DNA of 64,000 nucleotides, taken from assembly GCA_000091205.1 (NCBI GenBank), contig AP006502.2. The stretch is one strand, 5' to 3'. The notes under the pieces were generated by a model. That model searched no databases and was not told the origin of the DNA. It worked only from the letters and a program-made list of their open reading frames with translations. Of the stretch, positions 1,872 to 63,982 are shown piece after piece. A program made the translations under genes and the position numbers. Each line of letters begins with the position of its first letter. The first letter of the stretch is position 1. The DNA comes from Cyanidioschyzon merolae (Eukaryota).

Positions 1872-3907
1872 CTGAGCAAGAGCGCTGGGGTCTCGTTCGC
1901 ACTGTCGGCGATCCGCAGCTTCAGTTCCAGCTCATATGTCCCATGATACAAGGGATAGATGATACGTCCGCTCCGTTGCAGGTATGAGCGTTACGTGGAT
2001 GCGTGAGGTTGATGCTCCCACACCAGACGCTGGTTGCACGTGAGCGGGGCGCTGGTATGACTCACCGACTTATATTACGCGAGCTGTATCACGAACGGGG
2101 CATTGCTCTGAGAGGGTTCGTCCAGTTTGGATGCTGACGCAGAGTCCCTGTGCCTCATGCAAGTGCCTGGATGATATGGATTCCTCGTGAACGAGTCGCG
2201 AAAAGCACCTCGCCTGGTCGAGCCCAGGACTTGAAGCGCTGGGGCGACGATTCCATGCTGCGTGATCACTTTGGTCACACTCACTGAAACAGTACAAACT
2301 GAATGCATTCGTCTCTGGTCTGTGCGATACAGCCGGGGCTCGAGCGCCCCGTTCTGTGGCACCTTGCTCTGTACGCGGTCGTGGTACAGAGCCCTGTGCA
2401 TGCCAGTCTGCGCTTCTCATTCCCGCGTATGCGCGTTGCATCCGGGAGACATGTCGCTCGGGGCGAGCTCGGCTTTTGTAGGGCGGAAGCGGCGACACTT
2501 CGAGCGCCTGCATACCAGCGGACCCGCTGCATCGCGAGTCGATGCCCTGCAAGGCATCAATATGCCATCGGAACTCCGCATGATAAAGCCGCGTCAGCGT
2601 ATCCAGCGCCACAGCAATCGCATGAGTGAAGCTCTGAACCCACCGGGTCGCTGCATCTGACCTTCGTTGCGGCGGAGAATATCGGACTGGGCTGCGAAAT
2701 GACAGAATCTTCCCCGTATGGGTAGAGCGATCCAGTACAGGGGTATCGGCAGAGATCGCACACCGGCGAGTCTGCGGACATCGCTCGAAATGATGCCACA
2801 GAGTAGAGCCCGGCAGCTGGAGCTTCTCTGCATCGGGATCGCATTTCCCTAGATAGTATTGAACTGATGCAAATGAAAAAGAGTGGCGTACGTAGAGGAA
2901 CCAAACTGCAGACGATGGGTAGCGGCAGCGTGCCGGCATTTCGGCAACGCATTGGAAATCCGTCGATCTTCGTTTTCTAAGGATGCACGATGGTTTTCTG
3001 TAGCCAGAGATGCCCGATTGCAAAATAATTATCGGTATGTGGCACAACGTCCATCATTCCGTACTACACCTCAATTTCCCGTCGCAAGCTATTGGTCGGG
3101 ACGAGGTCCAGAGAGCATGCAGCCGTCGAAATGCGTTCCGGATCTGCTCGAGCACCACGCACCGCATAGCATCCCTTGTTGACGTTTTCTGGTCAGAGAA
3201 CATTGACGGTGATCGACGCTTCCCGTCCGAGTTGGCATGATGTCGGTATGTACCATACGCGTCGCCGCGACGCGTACTCGAGTTGTGAGTCGCTCGCACA
3301 CCGCCAGTCCAATGGATAACGGTAGCAGAGACGCACCTGGGACATCCACATCGGAATTCCAGAATGCAACGTACCGCGGGGACGTTCTTACCGGATTCCG
3401 CTCAAGTCAGCAAGTATCCAGAGAGATCCAAGAATGCATGCGAAAGAGGCACATGTGCGGAGATCACCACATTTCCGGTTTCCTAGCACTCCTTTGTACC
3501 TTGCGGGTGCAAGAGAATCCATCATGAAGCACTCGATCCGCAGACCAGTGGGTAAAGTGCGACCGCTCACGCGTACGGTATGCAAAAAAAGGCTGCGTAG
3601 GGATTCTAAAGCGTAGCGGGATCCAGAGCCTTTAGGAACAATGCGAGGCGGCCGGCATCCAGACGTGCAGTTGCTATCGAAACCTGTCAAGGCGTTTAGC
3701 CAGATTTGGTCTCGTCCCTGTGGTTCAAACAGGTTGCTTCGTGGGCAGGAGCTCCGGGCATCCGACCAAAGGCGACCGAATCGATCCGAATGCAACTTTG
3801 TCATATTTATGGATTTTTTCACCACAAAAATGAATCGTTCGTGAGGACTTGGAGCGAGCGCCCCGAATACGCGCTCAATGGATGCGTAGGCACCGCGGCG
3901 ATCGAAG

Positions 3908-4179
3908 AAGATATACGGGTCATGGAACTTGAACGTAGCGTGTAGCATGATAGACGCGTTCCCCGAAATCCGACGATCCATCCAGCAGTCCGGTATCGAT
4001 AGCCAGTAGAAACGCTCTGTCCAACATAATCGACCGTCTCTCAGTATCTTCTTGGCGAAGTATGGGTCATGGAACTTGAACGTAGCGTGTAGCATGATAG
4101 ACGCGTTCTCCGAAATCCGACGATCCATCCAGCAGTCCGGTATCGATAGCCAGTAGAAACGCTCTGTCCAGTAAAAAAG
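3908..4179. repeat. local duplication of a ~116-bp unit (copies at 3908-4023 and 4064-4179)
   Basis: The near-identical string 'gggtcatggaacttgaacgtagcgtgtagcatgatagacgcgtt(c/t)cccgaaatccgacgatccatccagcagtccggtatcgatagccagtagaaacgctctgtcca' occurs twice, 156 bp apart. Confidence 0.8.
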
Positions 4180-9510: not shown

Positions 9511-12500
9511 TTGATCGTGCTTTTGATAGATGGAATAAAGCAGAGCTGGTCAAGAAACCAGCCAGCCTTACGAAGTGAGCACCAGGCGCCAATATTCGTT
9601 GAAGCCACTCCCGGTACCCGTTGCGGCAAAAATGGGACGCTGCCGTTACGCTCCGCTGCGATGTTCTCTCCGATGACAAAACGTTTCCATTGACCGTCGG
9701 TTGCAGACTCCGAGATCGGTACTGGCTTGTGGGAAAGTGTCCACTATGACGCACTCCACCTCCAGGTTCCATTAAGTGTACTTCCTTTCGCATGGACTCG
9801 TTGTATTATACCTTCTATGGTCGGCCGAGCGCATGCCTTGCCGCATCCGCATTAGCGCCTAGACCGTTGGGGCGGATGCATCCCGGAGACAGCACGGCTT
9901 TGCCGTACCACTGAGGGCGTCAAGTCCAGGTGCGCTGGACTCGACACGGGATCAGAGTACGTAAGCTTTCTAGGAGTCAGCCGTATATGCTCTGGAAGAC
10001 TCAGTTCCGGAGAATGAGGTCAGGCAAGGAGACTAGAAACACTGACGTCAGGTTTCCACTATCCTTTTGGTAGAACGTCCACGAATTCGAGGTCGAGAGC
10101 AAAACGAGGCGATCCGACGATCTGACGCATTTCTTGTTCTGGTTGCGACATCGCTCCGAACGAGAATCCACAACGAGCGCTTCCACGGGCAGCTCTTCGT
10201 TCACCTGAATCGTTACGCCAAGAAGCTCTTCCATCAGTGCCTGCTTTTCTGGTCCACTTAGGTTACAGAAGAACTGGCTAAACGGGTACGACGACGGGTA
10301 CGAGTGTGCCTCATGTAGCGTTCGGCACATGGAACCGCGTACGGTTTTAGTTTCTGCGGTTTGCCTTATATATATGGCGTCTGCATAAGGTATGTACCGA
10401 CCGCAGGGGTGGCGTACCAGCGCTTCAAGATAATATGGCGAGCGTCTCGGCAAATCCCTGATCCTTCAGTCAGGCCAGATTGTATTTCCTGTCCCGAGTA
10501 TCAGTTTTGTTATCGCATGAATATTTGTGCACAAAATCTCTAGAGGAATGCGGACCGGTTGCAGCCTTGCATCCGGAACCCCTGAACGACAAATTGCTCG
10601 TCGAGGTGCTTGTAACTGAGCAAAGCTGGCGAGCCTTCGTCCTGCAAAATGCTACAAAATTTTTCACGGCGCCCTGTATCTCTCAATATTACGGATGCGA
10701 AGAGCTGATCTATGGATTCGGAAGCACAGAAATGGCGTTTGGCAACAGAGAGGGCGCATTCCACTCGGGTGAACACGGAAGAGAATGCTTGCATGAGAGG
10801 CGGCTCACCGCGAATTACAGCTTCGTCGTCCTTGAGTCCTGGCGCTTGGTGGAAAGTGACGTTTCCTGTCAACGGGAAAGAGGCATATGGGATGGAGAAG
10901 CCAAGACGTGCTTCGACGAAGGAAGAGCTATTGGACGATCCCGTCCGTTTGGTGTGAGTTGTCGGCGACCCTACGATTGAATCGTCGATAACGCCGATGC
11001 TGTTGTAATTCCTGTTTGTCTGCGGTATGCGAAAAGCGGTTCGCTTCTCGCTGAGTACCCGTGTGCAGGTCTACACTATCTCCGGAATGAGGGCTGATCC
11101 AGTGAGAGGAGCGCCATTGTTTCTTTGCATAAACGTTTGCGTCTCAAGACGTAATCGATTCTGTGATGCAAAACGCGCGACCGTCGCCTATAGAGGCGCC
11201 CTATTTTACTTGGCCCATTCGAGTCCCTTGTTCAGCGTTCGTTTCAACGGTACGAGCACGGCATATTGTGAGGCCTCCATGGTGGTGTTTCGTAGAAAAC
11301 GTGCGCAGCAGTAGACACAGACGAGGAGGCAGCTGCTACGCCAGGGCAAGATACGTTCTCTTTGGGGTGCATAACGTTCAGGATACATGCTGCGAAATGT
11401 GTGACTCATCCGCCCGGTGACGGTAGAATTACTGACTCGTGTACGCACGGTCGTTTGCAGAGGTCATCAGCGACACACCCTGGCCTTCGTGAGACCCTTT
11501 TCAAATCCATACAATAGATTCTTTTTCTTGAATACCTGCGAACCAACGAACAGAAACTAAAAGCGCGTGCAGGGACAGGCGCTCCAAAATGCATCACACT
11601 CTCAAGATAACGGTACTCCGTTGACACTCTCTAACGCTGATCTCTGGTGCTGCGTTCACTCAATAGCGCTCTTCTCCTGTAATGCACTGGAGCGGCGCTG
11701 TAAAGTCTGGAACTGGGCAACGAGCCCTGTTGAATGTCTAGGACGTCTGGCCGTACAAACAGCATATCGCAATCTGGGTATCCTGGTCTGCATCCAACGA
11801 CGAGTCGCAGAGGCGTGTTCATCGCGCCCTATACGATTCGTTGCAGACTGCGGTTCCGATGTGATTTCGGAAGCTACGCAGAACAAGCTTTTCTGGAAAG
11901 AAATTTCCCGACCTCATGTCACGGTTCATATACGTGCGTTCGCAAACATCTTGCAGTCCTCAGAAGAGATAGAAGACCATTATGCACGACCCGCGCTTGC
12001 GCAGGAGCGCGTCCTCGCCACTTGGTCCGGCACCGGCACTCAGACAGGCAGGTTATCGGAGAGCAGCTCCCGTTTGCTACGATTCTAGTCTAACGGTACT
12101 TGTCGAGCTTTGGTCAACAGACGAAACACCGCTTTTCGATTATGCACCGCTCCAGAGCTCATGTATAGCGTGATGGAACCCCGCATCGGGCACGTACGCA
12201 CGTTTCACCGCTCGTCGTAGACAGCAGTGCCTCCCGCAACGTCACTCCGGGACGCTGCGCTCCTCGATCAGAACTTCGAGCTGATCACCATAACCGCCCC
12301 GGTCTCGCGCAAGCCTCACTCTTCTCGCATATTTCAAGTTCCATGAGTAAAGACATCTACTGGATTTTCGCCTCTCGACAACGACTACTTGCACAGCGGA
12401 AAAGCCAGGCGCTCACGAAAGCGCCTCACCAGCAGCTCACGGGACGTCGTGGTAGCCGACGGCATACCGCCCAGAGGCGCTGGACGAGTCGCGCGGCAGG

Positions 12501-15182: not shown

Positions 15183-16607
15183 CGCGAGTTGCTGCACCCA
15201 CGAGTTGTCGTGAAACAGACAATATCGAAAAAGAGACGCATGCGTGATAAGCGCGTCCAACATGTCAGGAGCGGAGTATCACGCAGGCTTGTGCATATGA
15301 ACCTGATCATGGTATCGGTTGATTTTGGGAATCACTGATCGGAACGCGTCGCACACCATCGCGAGTCTCCGGGTACGTAACGAACGCCAGCGGCACAGCG
15401 TCAACGGGGGCACTTCGAAAAAGCAACCGGGCATCCTATCACGTACTATACATGCTTGGCCGTTTATTCCGGCAATCTGATTGTCGAGGCTGTACATCGA
15501 ATGCATCTAGGAAAAATTCGCAAGACAGACGCTGAGCGAGCAATACAATATCCGATTTTAAGCTGATACAGGTGTTTTCTCTGAACGCCCCACACGTTGC
15601 GGCCGGCGACAGTCTCGCGCTTGTCGCTCTGAGGACTCGCGATGCACGAGCTCGCAGGAACGTGCACCAGTGAGGTTAGTGAGCAAGAAACAACCTCCTG
15701 TGATCCTTTCATAAGAGGACAAATGCAGACCTTGACAGGGCGGCCCAGATACATTCGGGACTCTTCAGATCATGGACGTGGCCTTTGTGCCAATGACGCG
15801 CCCGACGGCCGCTCCAGTTCATGCAGAATCGAGGAAGGTGGACCCCCACAGAGATGCCATCAGTGACACACAAAAGTTATCCCACGAACATGGAGAGTAA
15901 ACACGTAGTCTCACTCACAGACCTCTCCCAGCATTTTTTGACAGGCCGTCTGCTATCGGCTGTAGCTTCTCTTTGTACACTTCGAGGCTGAGAGGCTACT
16001 TCACAAAGGTGGTTCGCGTCAGCACCACGTATCGTATGGAATTGATGGCGGCTACGAAGTCTCGGTTCACGAACTTCTTGTATTTATTGTATCTGCTTGA
16101 ACTCACCAATGCAAGGATTGCTAGAACACGTGCCCTCCGTACCACACCAGTCTCGTCATCATCCCGTGGGGCAAACACCTCTTCCCGCCTATCCCGCCTC
16201 TTCTTCTTCTTCCTCCTCGCTCTATCAAAGACCAGAAGAGGATTTTGCTCTTTCGTTTCTCTCCGGCACCCGATGACACCGGGAACTCCAGGATTCCCAA
16301 GTTACATCTCCATAACTTTCTCTTAGATTATGTATTTCTTCAAACGGACGCATTTCGAAAGCATCTTCCATACACCGCGAAATCGCATGATGAGACACGC
16401 ACCTGGTGATGGAACACCATTGGGATGAAATACTACAATCAGACTAATATGGACAATTTATGAAAGCATTTTGCCGCAGTCGCCGCCGGCACGTCCCACG
16501 CGAATCCCCGGGTTGACCTCGGGGGTCCATGGCAACAGCCTCCAAACGACAGCGAGCTTGCATGTCTCTTTTTCCGTAAGTTTCACACCAACCGCAGGCC
16601 GCTGATC

Positions 16608-57112: not shown

Positions 57113-58313
57113 GATTAGGGAAACAATCCAGCGAGTGATGCACTAAGCCAAATACCGCAACGTGCGTGTAGTTTCCCAGGCAAAGACTCTGAGTTTGACA
57201 CAGTGTCCGACTTTTCAAATGCGCTCCTTGCTCGTGAAACACAGCCCAAGGCGCTCACAGACAAGCTTCCAAGTGGTCTCCCAACAGCGTACTCGTCTGT
57301 GTACAGCGTACAATCAACAACGTTTTGAAACAGGGACACATAACGTCGAACTGGAGCAGTGCCGTTCCCGCCTTGTGCTGCACGCATGCATGACGCGTGG
57401 ACACGGATCAGTCCGATACGTGCATTGTGCTGTCGATCGATTTTTTTCGATGAAAAGAACGTTCCATGGACCACGGGATACCAGCGTGCGTAATGGATAT
57501 TGAAATAAACGGAAGCGCTCAATGTTCTTCACTCTACCTCCAAGTTGCATCACTTTTACTTCCTTTCGGATGCGATGGCCGTTTTGTACGTTGTATCGTG
57601 CGCCGAGTGCCTGCCTTGCTGCATGCGTGATAGCAGTTATGCCGCCGGTGCAGATGCAGCACGGGCACAGAACGGCTTTGCCAGATCACTGAGGGCATCG
57701 GATCGCGGGACGCTTCACCTGATACGAAGTCGGAATACGTAATCATTCTGGGGGCTTGAAAACTGGGCAGGCAGATGTTCTTTATGCGGCAGCGGGAAGC
57801 GATGTACTAGGATTCCAACCCGACCAAGGCGATGCCCAGACACAGGATACCCGCTCCTAATCCCAGAATAAACTGTGACGAGGCGGTGAAGGACCTCACG
57901 AATCTGAAGAACCATTTGACAATGAACCTCGAACGTTTCATGATACGCGCCGTGTTTGTGCTGTATCCGGGTGTCTCTTGCAAAGGAATATGGGCGATTA
58001 TCAATGGCATCATGAACGATCGATAGTATAAAGATGAGATCGAATTCGTCGACAAGACGACATCACGCAGGAGCACAAATGAAGCTTCCGTAATCTGTGC
58101 GGTTATACAGGAGCACTGCGCAGTCTTGGGGCTGGCGAATCGAGCAGGAAGGATATCAGAGTTGAAAAAGATAAGGAAAGACACTATCGCCTCGTCCTGC
58201 GCAATTTTGTGTTTCTGGACCGAGAACTCGAATGCAAGGCGGAGATGAAGCCTAATGAGGAAAACATGAAGAGTGGGAGAGACGGAAGGCGTCCCTAATG
58301 GGTAAGCGCTTCA

Positions 58314-59597
58314 ATGGCGTTCTGTTGTGCAACATCAAGTCACATTTTTGTGACTATCGACTCCAGAATCCTACATGGCATCATGAGGGAGAACAGTCCG
58401 GAGTTCGATGTTAGCAGGGAGAACTTCACCGGTGAAAACCGGGAGACGTACTGGAAGAATATCTTCGATTTCAGATGTCTCAAAACAAGCAAGAAAAAGA
58501 ACTTCACTGAGATGATCGAAACCGATGGAGTAGCCATGTGTGTACACCATCGGCGCTTGAAGGCAGATCGTCCAGTTCCGCTCTCGACTTCGCCCTCGGC
58601 GAAGCATGAACATGAGTAGAGGACGGATCCTGCCACTCAGAAAGTGCAGGATCACGACCTTGTCGTTGGCGCAGCGGAGCATGAAGATGAGAAGGAGGCG
58701 GGTCTTGAGAAGCAGAAAGTGCAGGATGACGACTTTGTCGTTGGCGCAGACCCCCGAAACACAAATATCATAACGATCGCTGTACCTAAGCGTGCGGAAG
58801 ATGGCATTGACGGCAACTTATGTCAGAAAGACATACGTCTTTTGAGGTTCTCTAGAGCAAGATACTATCGAGAATCGGGAACCATGAATGCAAGGAAGAA
58901 AATCGACACATGGAATGGAGGAATGAAGGGTCACCTGGGAGCTTTGAGCGAAGTGACGAGCCGAGGAGCGGACTTTCGAGCTTTTCGGAAATTCATGGAG
59001 GTTCGCGTTGCTCATTGGGAGGTGCTGTGGAAAGAGTATACAAAGCCCCGGTCGGCTCGTTTGCGAATGAATCTATACAGTGGGAAGCAGCGGGCGTTTG
59101 CCAACTTTTTCAATCAGTTGAGTGCCTTGAAGGAGGACGAGAGTCAAAGGCTCGTAGTAGCGTATGGGACAGCGCACTGGGCGCCCAAGAAAGGCACTAA
59201 GCCAGCTCCAACGACAAGAACTTACGAGGAGTGCGCAAGGCGTTTTGTTACGATACCTATAGATGAGTTTCGAACATTGTATACACACCATGAGCTGGGG
59301 TGTATACTTCAAAGGGTCGAGATGGAAAAGAGCCAGTAGAGCCCTGAAGTTATAAAAAAGTACGGAGCACTGACGGAAGACCAAATGGAAAGGAGGGCGA
59401 GAGTTCGAGGATTGCTTGCACTAGTGAGTACAACTACCAGTGGCAAGAAACGCATGGAGTTTGTGAACCGCGAATTCAATGCCGCAATCAATATAAGGAA
59501 ATGTGCGGTGCTGGAGAAGAGACCTCCAGAGTTGGCGAGAGAGAATTTTGTTGGACAATCTCTCAAAGTCGAACTATATGAGAAAAAGTTGGAATAA
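58314..59597 (+). pseudogene. TnpB/Fanzor-like (OMEGA-family RuvC) nuclease gene remnant; one reading frame with two in-frame TAG codons
   Basis: One frame contains three ORF pieces: 58314-58619, 58644-59339 and 59385-59597. RuvC-I-like '[18 protein letters not shown]' lies at ~58734-58790. 'FVTIPIDEFRTLYTHHELGC' at ~59240-59305 resembles the TnpB 'V.VDP.YTSQ.CS.CG' block with cysteines lost. RuvC-III-like 'KRMEFVNREFNAAINI' at 59451-59495 matches 'R.F.C..CG...RD.NAA.NI' but with C to M/V and D to E changes. The in-frame TAGs are at 58617-58619 and 59337-59339. Confidence 0.6.
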
Positions 59598-59994
59598 GTG
59601 GTGTGTGGCCGGTCCAAACAGGTTGCGAGGCGTCTGCACAACTGTCGGAGACGTTCTGTCTAGGGCGGGCTCCTCGCCACTACTGTACACCGCTGGCGGA
59701 AACGTTTTTCTTTTGAAAAGCGTTCGTTGTTGGCTTTGGTGAGCTCAAGCTTTGACTATCATTTGTTGAATAACCAAATTAAAACCAGTGAGTGGATCGT
59801 GTGCTCCAGTGGAAAACACCGTGCTCCACTGTTGGTTGCTTACGCGCCTCACTCTGAGGAGGCCGTGCATTTCAGGAGCGATCCGTCCCCTGCTGCTACA
59901 GAGCGCATAACGCCGTGACCTCCCGACGAGGCACTGACAAGGTTAGTGTACAAGTTCCAGGATCCGAGCAGCACCAGACGGCAACGCGCTACAA

Positions 59995-62253: not shown

Positions 62254-63502
62254 ACGAGTACAGAGTGAGAGCAGTACCATTTAAGAGATTGTAGAACCTT
62301 AATTTCAGTGGGCCTGAGTTACGGAACACCATAATCGTTTATCGCTAGCAACTGCTGGGGGGCTCGTTTCTGGTGTATATATATCTATGGCGCACCAGCT
62401 TTGCTGGAATGCCGAACCGTACCAAACCATACCATACAAGTGCGTTGCTCCAAGCGAGAATCCAATACCCTTTCCCTTGGCCTCTGAAAGAGTTCAGTCC
62501 AAGCCCATAGCTTTTCCGCAGGATGCGCATACTGAGCATCACACGATTCCCTCGAAAAGTTCGGTCGAAACAACGCTGTCAGACGCTCGGGCAGCACGAG
62601 GCATTTCCGCATTGTGACCGCGATGTTGTCGTTTCTGTGCATATATATCGCTTTGGCTCATGGTTGCTCGTGGAATTACACGATACCAAGCATCTCAGTT
62701 GTGTTTTCCTCGTCATCCAACGTTCGCCCAGAGCTTACCTTACACCATCTCGTGTGTGCGTCTCCGTTTTGCGTCCCTTGCCTCTACTCGTTTCATCTTG
62801 AACTCGTGCTCGTAATACGCGCGTGCTAGCCTGGAAGAATCGATGGGAATCATACAGAATAGATTCCCGCACTTATCATACACTTCCGTGGAAGGAGCAG
62901 AAGTGCTGGCCTTGCGCGTCACAGCACGCTCTGCGAAGCGCGCTACCTCCAAACGAAGCGACTTGTCGATCGTTTCCTTTCCCAAATTGCTGAACGAGAT
63001 GAAGAATGCATGTTTCTTGTTGCGATTCATCGGAAACCGTTGAATACGCTTGCACGGTCCCATATACTCCTGTAAAATGTCGTCTGCAAGCACCAGGTGG
63101 ACGCTCAGTTCTCTTCTGCATGAATTGCCAAAAGTTTTCTTGTGTTCGATAAGGGTCTCAGTGCCTCAATGCGGGTCTTGAAGCAGTTATTCCACGAGTT
63201 AGTATGCCTGCCGACGTCCATCATGCCCGCTCTTCTATAATACTGGGCCCCGGAGAAGTTCAGCAGTTTCACCAGATTATCGCTCTAGTCTTTTGCTCGG
63301 TCCAATTGATTTTGGGGTACGGCGACGGCTACAAAGACTTTTAGCGGAAGTTCAGGCCCACGAATAAGACTTCCTCTATATCTACCCTGAACTACTGAAA
63401 AAGAATCTCGTAGCTCGATTCATGCGAAGTATTTGAAAAGTGCATGCAGATTCATGTTCCGTAGGCCTCCATGCTCGATGTAAACCTCTTTCCATTTCCT
63501 TG

Positions 63503-63982
63503 CTATAAGAGCGAGACCTTGGACGCGCTCCGCAAACGCTCTTCGCAAAGTTCTGGAAATGCTTTAATCATGTTCGCAGAGGCTAGTTGCTGTTCACTCC
63601 GTAGGACATGCAGTACAGAAGTGCATATACTGAGATAGAGGGTCTTGATTGGACATTTGGAAGCCAAGCGGAACACAGTTTTGTCGTGCCGACGGCGCTC
63701 GGATGCGAGAAGCGTTCGTCGCTCATGAAGGCGCAATGCAAGATAAGACAGTGGCGCGAAATGTACTCCAGGTATCGCGTTTCGACCATCCTTGGAATAC
63801 GATGTTTTTCGGTCCGCATCCGAGAACAATACGATGAGTTTGATCGATCGTTTTCTTCTGGACGCTTTTTCCGAATTCGCCACCATCAGCTCTTCCATCA
63901 GTCCCGACTTTTCTGTTTGAGTGTGATGAGGCTGGGACAGTGATAGAGCGGTAATTATGAAGAGTTGGATATTGAGCCGCAT
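63503..63982 (-). CDS. hypothetical small protein with signal-peptide-like N-terminus (159 aa)
   Basis: The N-terminus 'MRLNIQLFIITALSLSQP' is a classic hydrophobic h-region followed by a polar stretch. It sits in a lower-GC tail of the window. No RxLR, LFLAK or other effector motif was seen. Confidence 0.25.
   Translation of the reverse strand: MRLNIQLFIITALSLSQPHHTQTEKSGLMEELMVANSEKASRRKRSIKLIVLFSDADRKTSYSKDGRNAIPGVHFAPLSYLALRLHERRTLLASERRRHDKTVFRLASKCPIKTLYLSICTSVLHVLRSEQQLASANMIKAFPELCEERLRSASKVSLL

Follow-up and report, generated by a model that had tools for sequence, protein, structure and literature searches.

In the catalogue of Bao and Jurka (2013; Mobile DNA, PMC3627910), CMe-1A is the single Fanzor1 family listed for Cyanidioschyzon merolae. 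It comprises about 150 copies with identities of about 80% to a consensus of about 3 kb, lacks terminal inverted repeats (TIRs) and was listed with target-site duplications (TSDs) undetermined. Its 5' 635 bp are also found as a separate element of about 70 copies, TE-N2_CMe. The supplement of the same paper gives a consensus of 3,169 bp and a CMe-1 protein of 734 amino acids (aa) encoded by a single exon ('734 (1)'). The window considered here, a stretch of 64,000 nucleotides (nt) from C. merolae contig AP006502.2 (assembly GCA_000091205.1), was first described in an initial annotation made from the sequence alone, which placed a remnant of a Fanzor/TnpB-like RuvC nuclease at 58298–59597. This region is almost certainly a fixed, degenerate and dead copy of CMe-1A, a known Fanzor1-encoding repeat of C. 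merolae. The family has been known since 2013 and the locus is not a new eukaryotic Fanzor.

Comparison with the CMe-1A consensus revealed that the copy, which lies on the (+) strand like all features below unless stated otherwise, is collinear with the consensus apart from one 975-bp internal deletion. Consensus positions 1–423, the 5' non-coding region shared with TE-N2_CMe, matched window positions 57448–57875 at 77.6% nucleotide identity. Consensus 1399–2194 matched 57878–58672 at 88.2% and consensus 2121–3169 matched 58674–59722 at 87.5%. The Fanzor1 (CMe-1) pseudogene occupies 57878–59660 and corresponds to codons 165–734 distributed across three frames. A tblastn search with CMe-1 placed aa 167–262 at 57883–58170 (frame 1) and aa 248–734 at 58125–59660 (frame 3), and in a codon-by-codon alignment 466 of 569 codons were identical between the window and CMe-1. 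The nuclease remnant of the initial annotation was thus real, but its coordinates were too narrow, since homology to the CMe-1A consensus and to genomic relatives extends the element copy from about 57448 to about 59734.

The same unit was recovered from environmental sequences. Of 335 genomic relatives found, 80 were fetched and analysed, and together with the roughly 150 copies reported for C. merolae (PMC3627910) they show a multi-copy family whose open reading frame (ORF) lies within a mobile element unit. Coverage depth across the fetched loci defined a sharply bounded unit of about 3.2 kb. The window was homologous to these relatives over 57878–59730, and about 20 loci were also homologous over 57437–57875, the two blocks being separated in them by about 1 kb that is absent from the window. 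A majority consensus of 21 full-length metagenome copies was 94.5–95.3% identical to the published consensus and contained one long ORF of about 750–775 aa with a basic N-terminus, the same ORF as published. In the consensus protein this N-terminus (MEKEVEDPGGPVSPAAGKKRKTV...KKQKREARRQRLQERR) is a eukaryote-type extension with a basic segment resembling a nuclear localization signal (NLS), and it is deleted from the window copy. At about 700 nt of the reference 5' region, coverage dropped from about 60 copies to about 30, and among the copies with enough flanking sequence about half had no homology to the first ~700 nt of that region (loci L015–L082), which suggests either that subfamilies differ in their 5' modules or that copies are often truncated at the 5' end.

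The downstream part of the coding region is the near-open frame at 58314–59597 reported initially, and its translation, its two in-frame TAGs (codons 102 and 342, at 58617 and 59337), its terminal TAA (59595) and the positions of the quoted motifs were all confirmed. These motifs are a block of 16 residues at frame residues 142–157, including Asp146, LVVAYGTAHW at residue 280, YTHHELGC at 323 and RMEFVNREFNAAINI at residues 380–394. About 17 stops would be expected in 427 codons at the base composition of the window, and the probability of finding two or fewer is about 6e-6; the near-open frame is therefore not a product of chance. It begins where it does because of a +1 shift at 58345, and coding remnant continues upstream of it in other frames from 57878. 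Consistent with this, protein relatives reach about 590 aa and their starts match window 57832–58026, in another frame upstream of 58314–59597.

Codon alignment to CMe-1 revealed extensive damage. The deletion junction lies at 57876–57877, where consensus 424–1398 is missing; what was left of the non-coding 5' part is gone with it, as are the start codon (ATG at consensus 906) and codons 1–164 with the NLS-like N-terminus. Farther downstream, a TAG replaces Lys214 (58024–58026), and three frameshifts relative to the consensus fall within 58165–58345: one base is lost near 58165 (−1) and another near 58261 (−1), and a T is gained at 58345 (+1). Two tandem repeat units of 75 nt (25 aa) are present at 58597–58747 (self-match of 58599–58674 to 58674–58749 at 81.6%), whereas the published consensus has one, and the extra unit bears the TAG at 58617–58619. 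A further TAG replaces Arg627 (59337–59339) and is common to environmental orthologues, the RuvC-III Asp is changed to Glu at 59472–59474 (NRDFNAAINI to NREFNAAINI), and a TAA in place of Ala713 (59595–59597) cuts off the last 22 consensus codons. In total, the copy carries four premature stops, three frameshifts and one extra repeat unit, and has neither an intact catalytic triad nor an uninterrupted ORF. The RuvC-III block had been placed correctly in the initial annotation, but its catalytic Asp is mutated, which is the real catalytic lesion of this copy. The 75-nt repeat (acidic, 'ATQEVQDNDLVVGAAKHEDEKEA'-like) varies from one to about five units among copies (relatives P0001, P0002 and P0004, with five in P0001), and encodes a disordered linker just before RuvC-I, the sole disordered stretch of the AlphaFold model described below (P0016 residues 259–298, predicted local distance difference test score (pLDDT) <50).

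Assignment of this protein to Fanzor1 rested on profile and fold comparisons. A search of a large protein collection returned 177 relatives at 60–80% identity, all from metagenomes, some of which were tagged PF26935; this tag ('DUF8286') was a weak match and was set aside. A family profile built from 22 close relatives (A1) found no TnpB, Fanzor or Cas12 chain among Protein Data Bank (PDB) sequences, because the profile was too little diverged and not because homology was absent. An exhaustive search with A1 yielded 1,431 relatives, many of them 600–700 aa long and matching within the C-terminal ~270 residues, and 85 of these, at about 30% identity to the window family, were aligned as A2. Against the PDB, the A2 profile matched Fanzor1 chains only: 9cf0 (Parasitella Fz1, E = 2.3e-21), 8gkh (Spizellomyces Fz1, 4.6e-15) and 9cer (Guillardia Fz1, 7.8e-8), with alignments that cross the DPG, DEFRT and NRDxNAAxNI motifs. 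The window frame itself scored 345 bits against a profile of the distant relatives only. Single distant relatives searched against the PDB were borderline at best (9cf0, E = 0.027) and otherwise gave no match. At the level of the family, the Fanzor profile check suggested at the outset turned out positive, as did the structural one. With a shallow alignment AlphaFold gave a pLDDT of 40 and an unusable model. With the A2 alignment, AlphaFold 2 modelled P0016, a member of the family with about 70% identity to the translated window frame, at a pLDDT of 85.6 and a predicted template modelling score of 0.80. Foldseek placed the Spizellomyces, Parasitella and Guillardia enzymes (SpuFz, PpFz and GtFz) as the top seven PDB matches to this model (E = 2.5e-13 to 4e-9, template modelling score (TM) up to 0.62 over ~600 residues), the best being SpuFz1 at E = 2.5e-13, and Cas12 variants came next at E ≥ 0.01. 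Profile homology to three solved Fanzor1 proteins, the fold match and 88% identity to CMe-1A together bear out the view of the locus as a Fanzor/TnpB-like RuvC remnant.

Within the 85 sequences of A2, D314 (G-x-D-P-G) and E486 (V-D-E-F-R-T) were invariant and D555 (N-R-D-x-N-A-A-x-N-I) was at least 90% conserved. Two of these three residues are kept in the window: the RuvC-I catalytic Asp (G-A-D-P) at 58749–58751, supported by the A2 and PDB profile alignments, and the alternative, or rearranged, RuvC-II Glu in I-D-E-F-R-T at 59265–59267, which aligned to DEFRTS in PpFz1 and DEYKTS in SpuFz1. In Fanzors, Gly or Pro stands in for the canonical RuvC-II Glu, and an alternative Glu some 45 residues farther downstream is essential (Jiang et al., 2023; PMC10530073). 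The DEFRT Glu of the present family sits about 35 residues past AYG, and the clade as a whole has 'LVVAYG', with no Glu, as its consensus. The missing Glu is therefore not a lesion but the mark of the rearranged-site subgroup; of the two explanations offered initially for the missing Glu, the rearranged site stands and inactivation does not.

YTHHELGC had been read as the entry to a zinc finger. Its position is right, as PpFz1 carries DEFRTSSFCPKC there, the first Cys pair of Fanzor1/TnpB, but the clade has no CxxC pairs and the motif is not a zinc-finger entry. CMe-1 retains only HHELGC...C at this site. Judged from the alignment, the loss of the zinc ribbon is clade-wide and not a lesion of the window copy. 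In the A2 subclade a single conserved Cys is left, in 'RGLLWC'.

Across 68 copies, codon positions 1 and 2 were conserved at 0.91–0.95 and position 3 at 0.81–0.87, which indicates that the family spread under selection on its protein, as argued previously (PMC3627910). The 3' non-coding tail was the least conserved part across copies (0.82). The age of the window copy is constrained by three orthologous loci, L083, L085 and L086, on metagenome contigs Ga0078972_1002924, Ga0504774_000052 and Ga0504777_000533 from environmental Cyanidioschyzon-like algae. They are syntenic with the window (CMT128C, element, Nug1 gene) and have the same 2.88-kb spacer, the same 975-bp deletion and the same two TAGs, at 98.2–98.4% identity to the window. 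The non-coding spacer is about 98.3% identical, and these metagenomes therefore hold very close relatives of strain 10D. Because the lesions are common to the environmental orthologues, these populations diverged only after the element had inserted and most of its decay had taken place.

Several results weigh against the interpretation of the locus as a relic of a Fanzor1 element. The initial annotation had proposed Pfam TnpB models as a check on the read-through translation, and these gave no match; Pfam-A and NCBIfam together returned nothing even at E ≤ 10. Pfam likewise found no TnpB match in the close relatives or in any of the 22 A1 members, and PF07282 appeared in distant relatives only, at 13–18 bits against a cut-off of 26.3 and thus below threshold. 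In the interval from the Glu strand to RuvC-III, a single CxxC was present in only two of the 85 clade members, and no member had two. At the RNA level, a search of the whole window against Rfam gave no match, and alifold on 65 aligned 3' tails predicted a 3-bp stem only, with no omega-RNA structure supported by covariation. None of the 80 fetched loci combined the N-terminus with all three catalytic motifs, that is, a fully intact ORF, so that it is uncertain whether the family is active today.

Based on the 3' junctions of 53 unique copies, the 3' non-coding tail occupies 59661–59734 and closes with a terminal hairpin, about 43 nt long (59692–59734), GCTGGCGGAAACGTTTTTC-TTTT-GAAAAGCGTTCGTTGTTGGC, with a minimum free energy of −18 kcal/mol and z = −4.0 in the window copy. 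Two sequence variants of the hairpin were found, with the stem kept in both (CGTTTTTC-TTTT-GAAAGACG and GTTCGA-CTT-TCGAAC; loci L003–L082). Its outer pairs and the conservation around it reach about 10–12 nt past the published end of CMe-1A, which falls inside the 3' arm. The guide (omega) RNA of characterised Fanzors and TnpBs stems from the 3' end of the element, and the 3' 1.8 kb of the window copy, hairpin included, has been well conserved, with 87.5% of positions matching the consensus and z = −4 for the hairpin. A copy dead at the protein level could therefore still supply guide RNA from its 3' end, to be used in trans by the Fanzor1 of intact copies. The absence of a conserved alifold structure and of an Rfam match, the low conservation of the tail relative to the rest of the element and the absence of an intact protein-coding copy among the 80 relatives make this very improbable. 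Nor did the 3' end of the ORF show any excess conservation at third codon positions (68 copies).

Even less credible is a functional, intron-containing Fanzor gene starting at the ATG at 58298 or 58314, in which introns would remove the TAG-containing segments. Fanzor genes of other eukaryotes are known from the literature to have acquired introns, and the ATG at 58298 directly precedes GGTAAG, a resemblance to a 5' splice site that had been taken as a hint of splicing. However, ATG-GGT-AAG lies between the frameshifts and aligns to the conserved Met-Gly-Lys of 'LMGKRFN' in the intronless consensus ORF; it is therefore coding sequence and not a splice donor. Both TAGs lie within conserved coding sequence, as point changes or in the duplicated repeat unit, and as read against the consensus the stops are mutations and not intron content. 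The three single-base frameshifts and the 975-bp deletion, which removed the true start and 164 codons, and the loss of the RuvC-III Asp also argue against a working gene, as does the single exon of the published CMe-1 ORF. Introns are very few in C. merolae. Lastly, a chance resemblance, in which short motifs in unrelated or non-coding sequence mimic RuvC blocks, could appeal to the empty Pfam and NCBIfam searches and to the failure of the shallow family profile to find a TnpB or Fanzor chain in the PDB, but deep profile, fold and direct identity agree on Fanzor1 and refute it, leaving it a negligible probability.

A decayed copy of CMe-1A accordingly remains the preferred reading, and its termini bear on how the family may have moved. 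Directly 5' of the element is a T-rich tract (57441–57447; sequence and 24 unique 5' junctions), and a T/C-rich run preceded all 24 unique 5' junctions, with unrelated sequence farther out. The T-rich tract is either a target preference, or one resembling a transposon-adjacent motif (TAM), or the true first bases of the element. The T/C-rich tract (CGATGACAAAACG...) resembles TTTTTCTTTT in the 5' arm of the 3' hairpin. TIRs were considered and rejected: the ends have a short motif around the palindromic AAACGTTT, which the 3' hairpin explains better. A search for empty sites that would define the insertion boundaries and a TSD found none, the orthologous loci in environmental strains all carrying the insertion. 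As a speculation, the hairpin and the T/C-rich tract are compatible with single-strand or Helitron-like movement or with a TAM-like target preference. A broader proposal, which as a whole we regard as unlikely, would be that CMe-1A moves in a single-strand style (IS200/IS605 or Helitron) with the 3' hairpin and the T-rich 5' flank as end and target (TAM-like) signals, and that its Fanzor1, which lacks a zinc ribbon and belongs to an alga that lives at about 45 °C and pH 2, is or was an active RNA-guided nuclease of an uncharacterised subclade. If true, this would provide a mechanism for an element that has been without known classification or target-site behaviour since 2013.

The element copy is housed in the 2.88-kb spacer between CYME_CMT128C (BAM83138.1, PAP2-like) and the gene of a 'GTP-binding protein of Nug1 family' (BAM83139.1). 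Exact look-up gave exact protein matches for both flanking ORFs, on a 1.62-Mb record, and identified the strain as C. merolae 10D and the insertion site as lying on one of its chromosomes, which confirmed the eukaryotic context and the housekeeping neighbour, a Nug1-family GTPase, described initially. The two accessions are consecutive, and there is therefore no annotated feature between these genes.

Other remnants were found elsewhere in the window. Just downstream of the Nug1 GTPase gene, 62556–63715 (−) contains a second, much older Fanzor1-like pseudogene, in three broken frames, with about 30–33% aa identity to CMe-1 and to relative P0122 (aa 296–626). It may represent an uncatalogued ancient lineage, one C. 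merolae Fanzor1 family being listed in PMC3627910. A diverged CMe-1-like fragment at 15846–16435 (−), whose C-terminal ~100 codons are 42–45% identical to CMe-1 and which includes a piece like consensus 788–967 (72%), probably stems from another subfamily and has lost an internal segment. Stand-alone pieces of the CMe-1A 5' module lie at 9671–9921 (+), 4057–4168 (−) and 3904–4021 (−), the last two as a tandem pair at 3.9–4.2 kb. They correspond to consensus 1–247 and ~5–116, are 76–80% identical to it and presumably are TE-N2_CMe copies.

Taken together, the ancestral element is about 3.2 kb long, with a non-coding 5' region of about 900 nt, a single ORF without introns (734 aa) and a short 3' tail with a hairpin. 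Its product belongs to Fanzor1, the eukaryotic homologues of TnpB; it has one RuvC nuclease domain, in which the catalytic Glu now sits on the 'DEFRT' strand. By homology with SpuFz1, PpFz1 and GtFz1, intact copies would be predicted to bind RNA from the 3' end of the element and cut matching DNA. The window copy is incapable of this, because its start codon and 164 codons are gone and it carries three frameshifts, four stops, an extra repeat unit and the RuvC-III Asp to Glu change; it is a neutral relic of old decay. The locus, a neutral pseudogene from a repeat family on record since 2013, answers no open question. It does illustrate that a Fanzor can be recognised from three short motifs where Pfam models miss it. 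The additions made here are incremental. They refine the termini (3' hairpin and T-rich 5' flank), show that the zinc ribbon is lost throughout the clade and bring to light another Fanzor1 remnant of greater age, and would be of use for reconstituting a red-algal Fanzor or classifying CMe-1A.

With respect to described systems, the window copy is closest to CMe-1A itself, with the same host, the same 734-aa ORF, no TIRs and an identity of 78–88%, within the ~80% typical of copies. Its 5' module is common with TE-N2_CMe, and fragments of this module occur elsewhere in the window. It differs from the consensus in the 975-bp deletion, the frameshifts and stops, and the change of the RuvC-III Asp to Glu. 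Prokaryotic TnpB (ISDra2 TnpB; OrfB_IS605 / Cas12f1-like_TNB) and Cas12f are distant relatives by the RuvC fold and have the NAAxNI signature of RuvC-III in common with CMe-1. In contrast to them, CMe-1 gives no significant Pfam match and has a relocated Glu, with LVVAYG at the canonical RuvC-II position; compared with prokaryotic TnpB it is also extended at the N-terminus, by a long stretch of eukaryotic type that includes a basic, NLS-like segment, and it has no TnpA partner.

Among characterised enzymes, SpuFz1 (8gkh/9ce*), PpFz1 (9cf0-3) and GtFz1 (9cer-t) have the same overall fold as the CMe-1 clade (TM ~0.5–0.62 over ~600 residues), and likewise possess the RuvC motifs, including the Glu moved to D-E-[FY]-[RK]-T and, for RuvC-III, N-R-D, although sequence identity is only 13–17%. 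They have Cys pairs after DE[FY][RK]TS (e.g., FCPKC, VCPRC), whereas the CMe-1 clade has none, and their omega-RNAs and activity were shown experimentally, whereas those of CMe-1 are predicted. The zinc-ribbon-less subclade appears also to take in VCa-1 and VCa-2 of Volvox carteri, as compared by eye in the 2013 supplement (PMC3627910). A common block, '...V-A-Y-[GS]-x-x-K-F-...-G-E-x-[AS]-V-P-T-...-K-E-C-...-V-D-E-F-R-', links these two proteins, CMe-1 and the A2 consensus, and the host of the Volvox elements is a green alga, of a different lineage from C. merolae.

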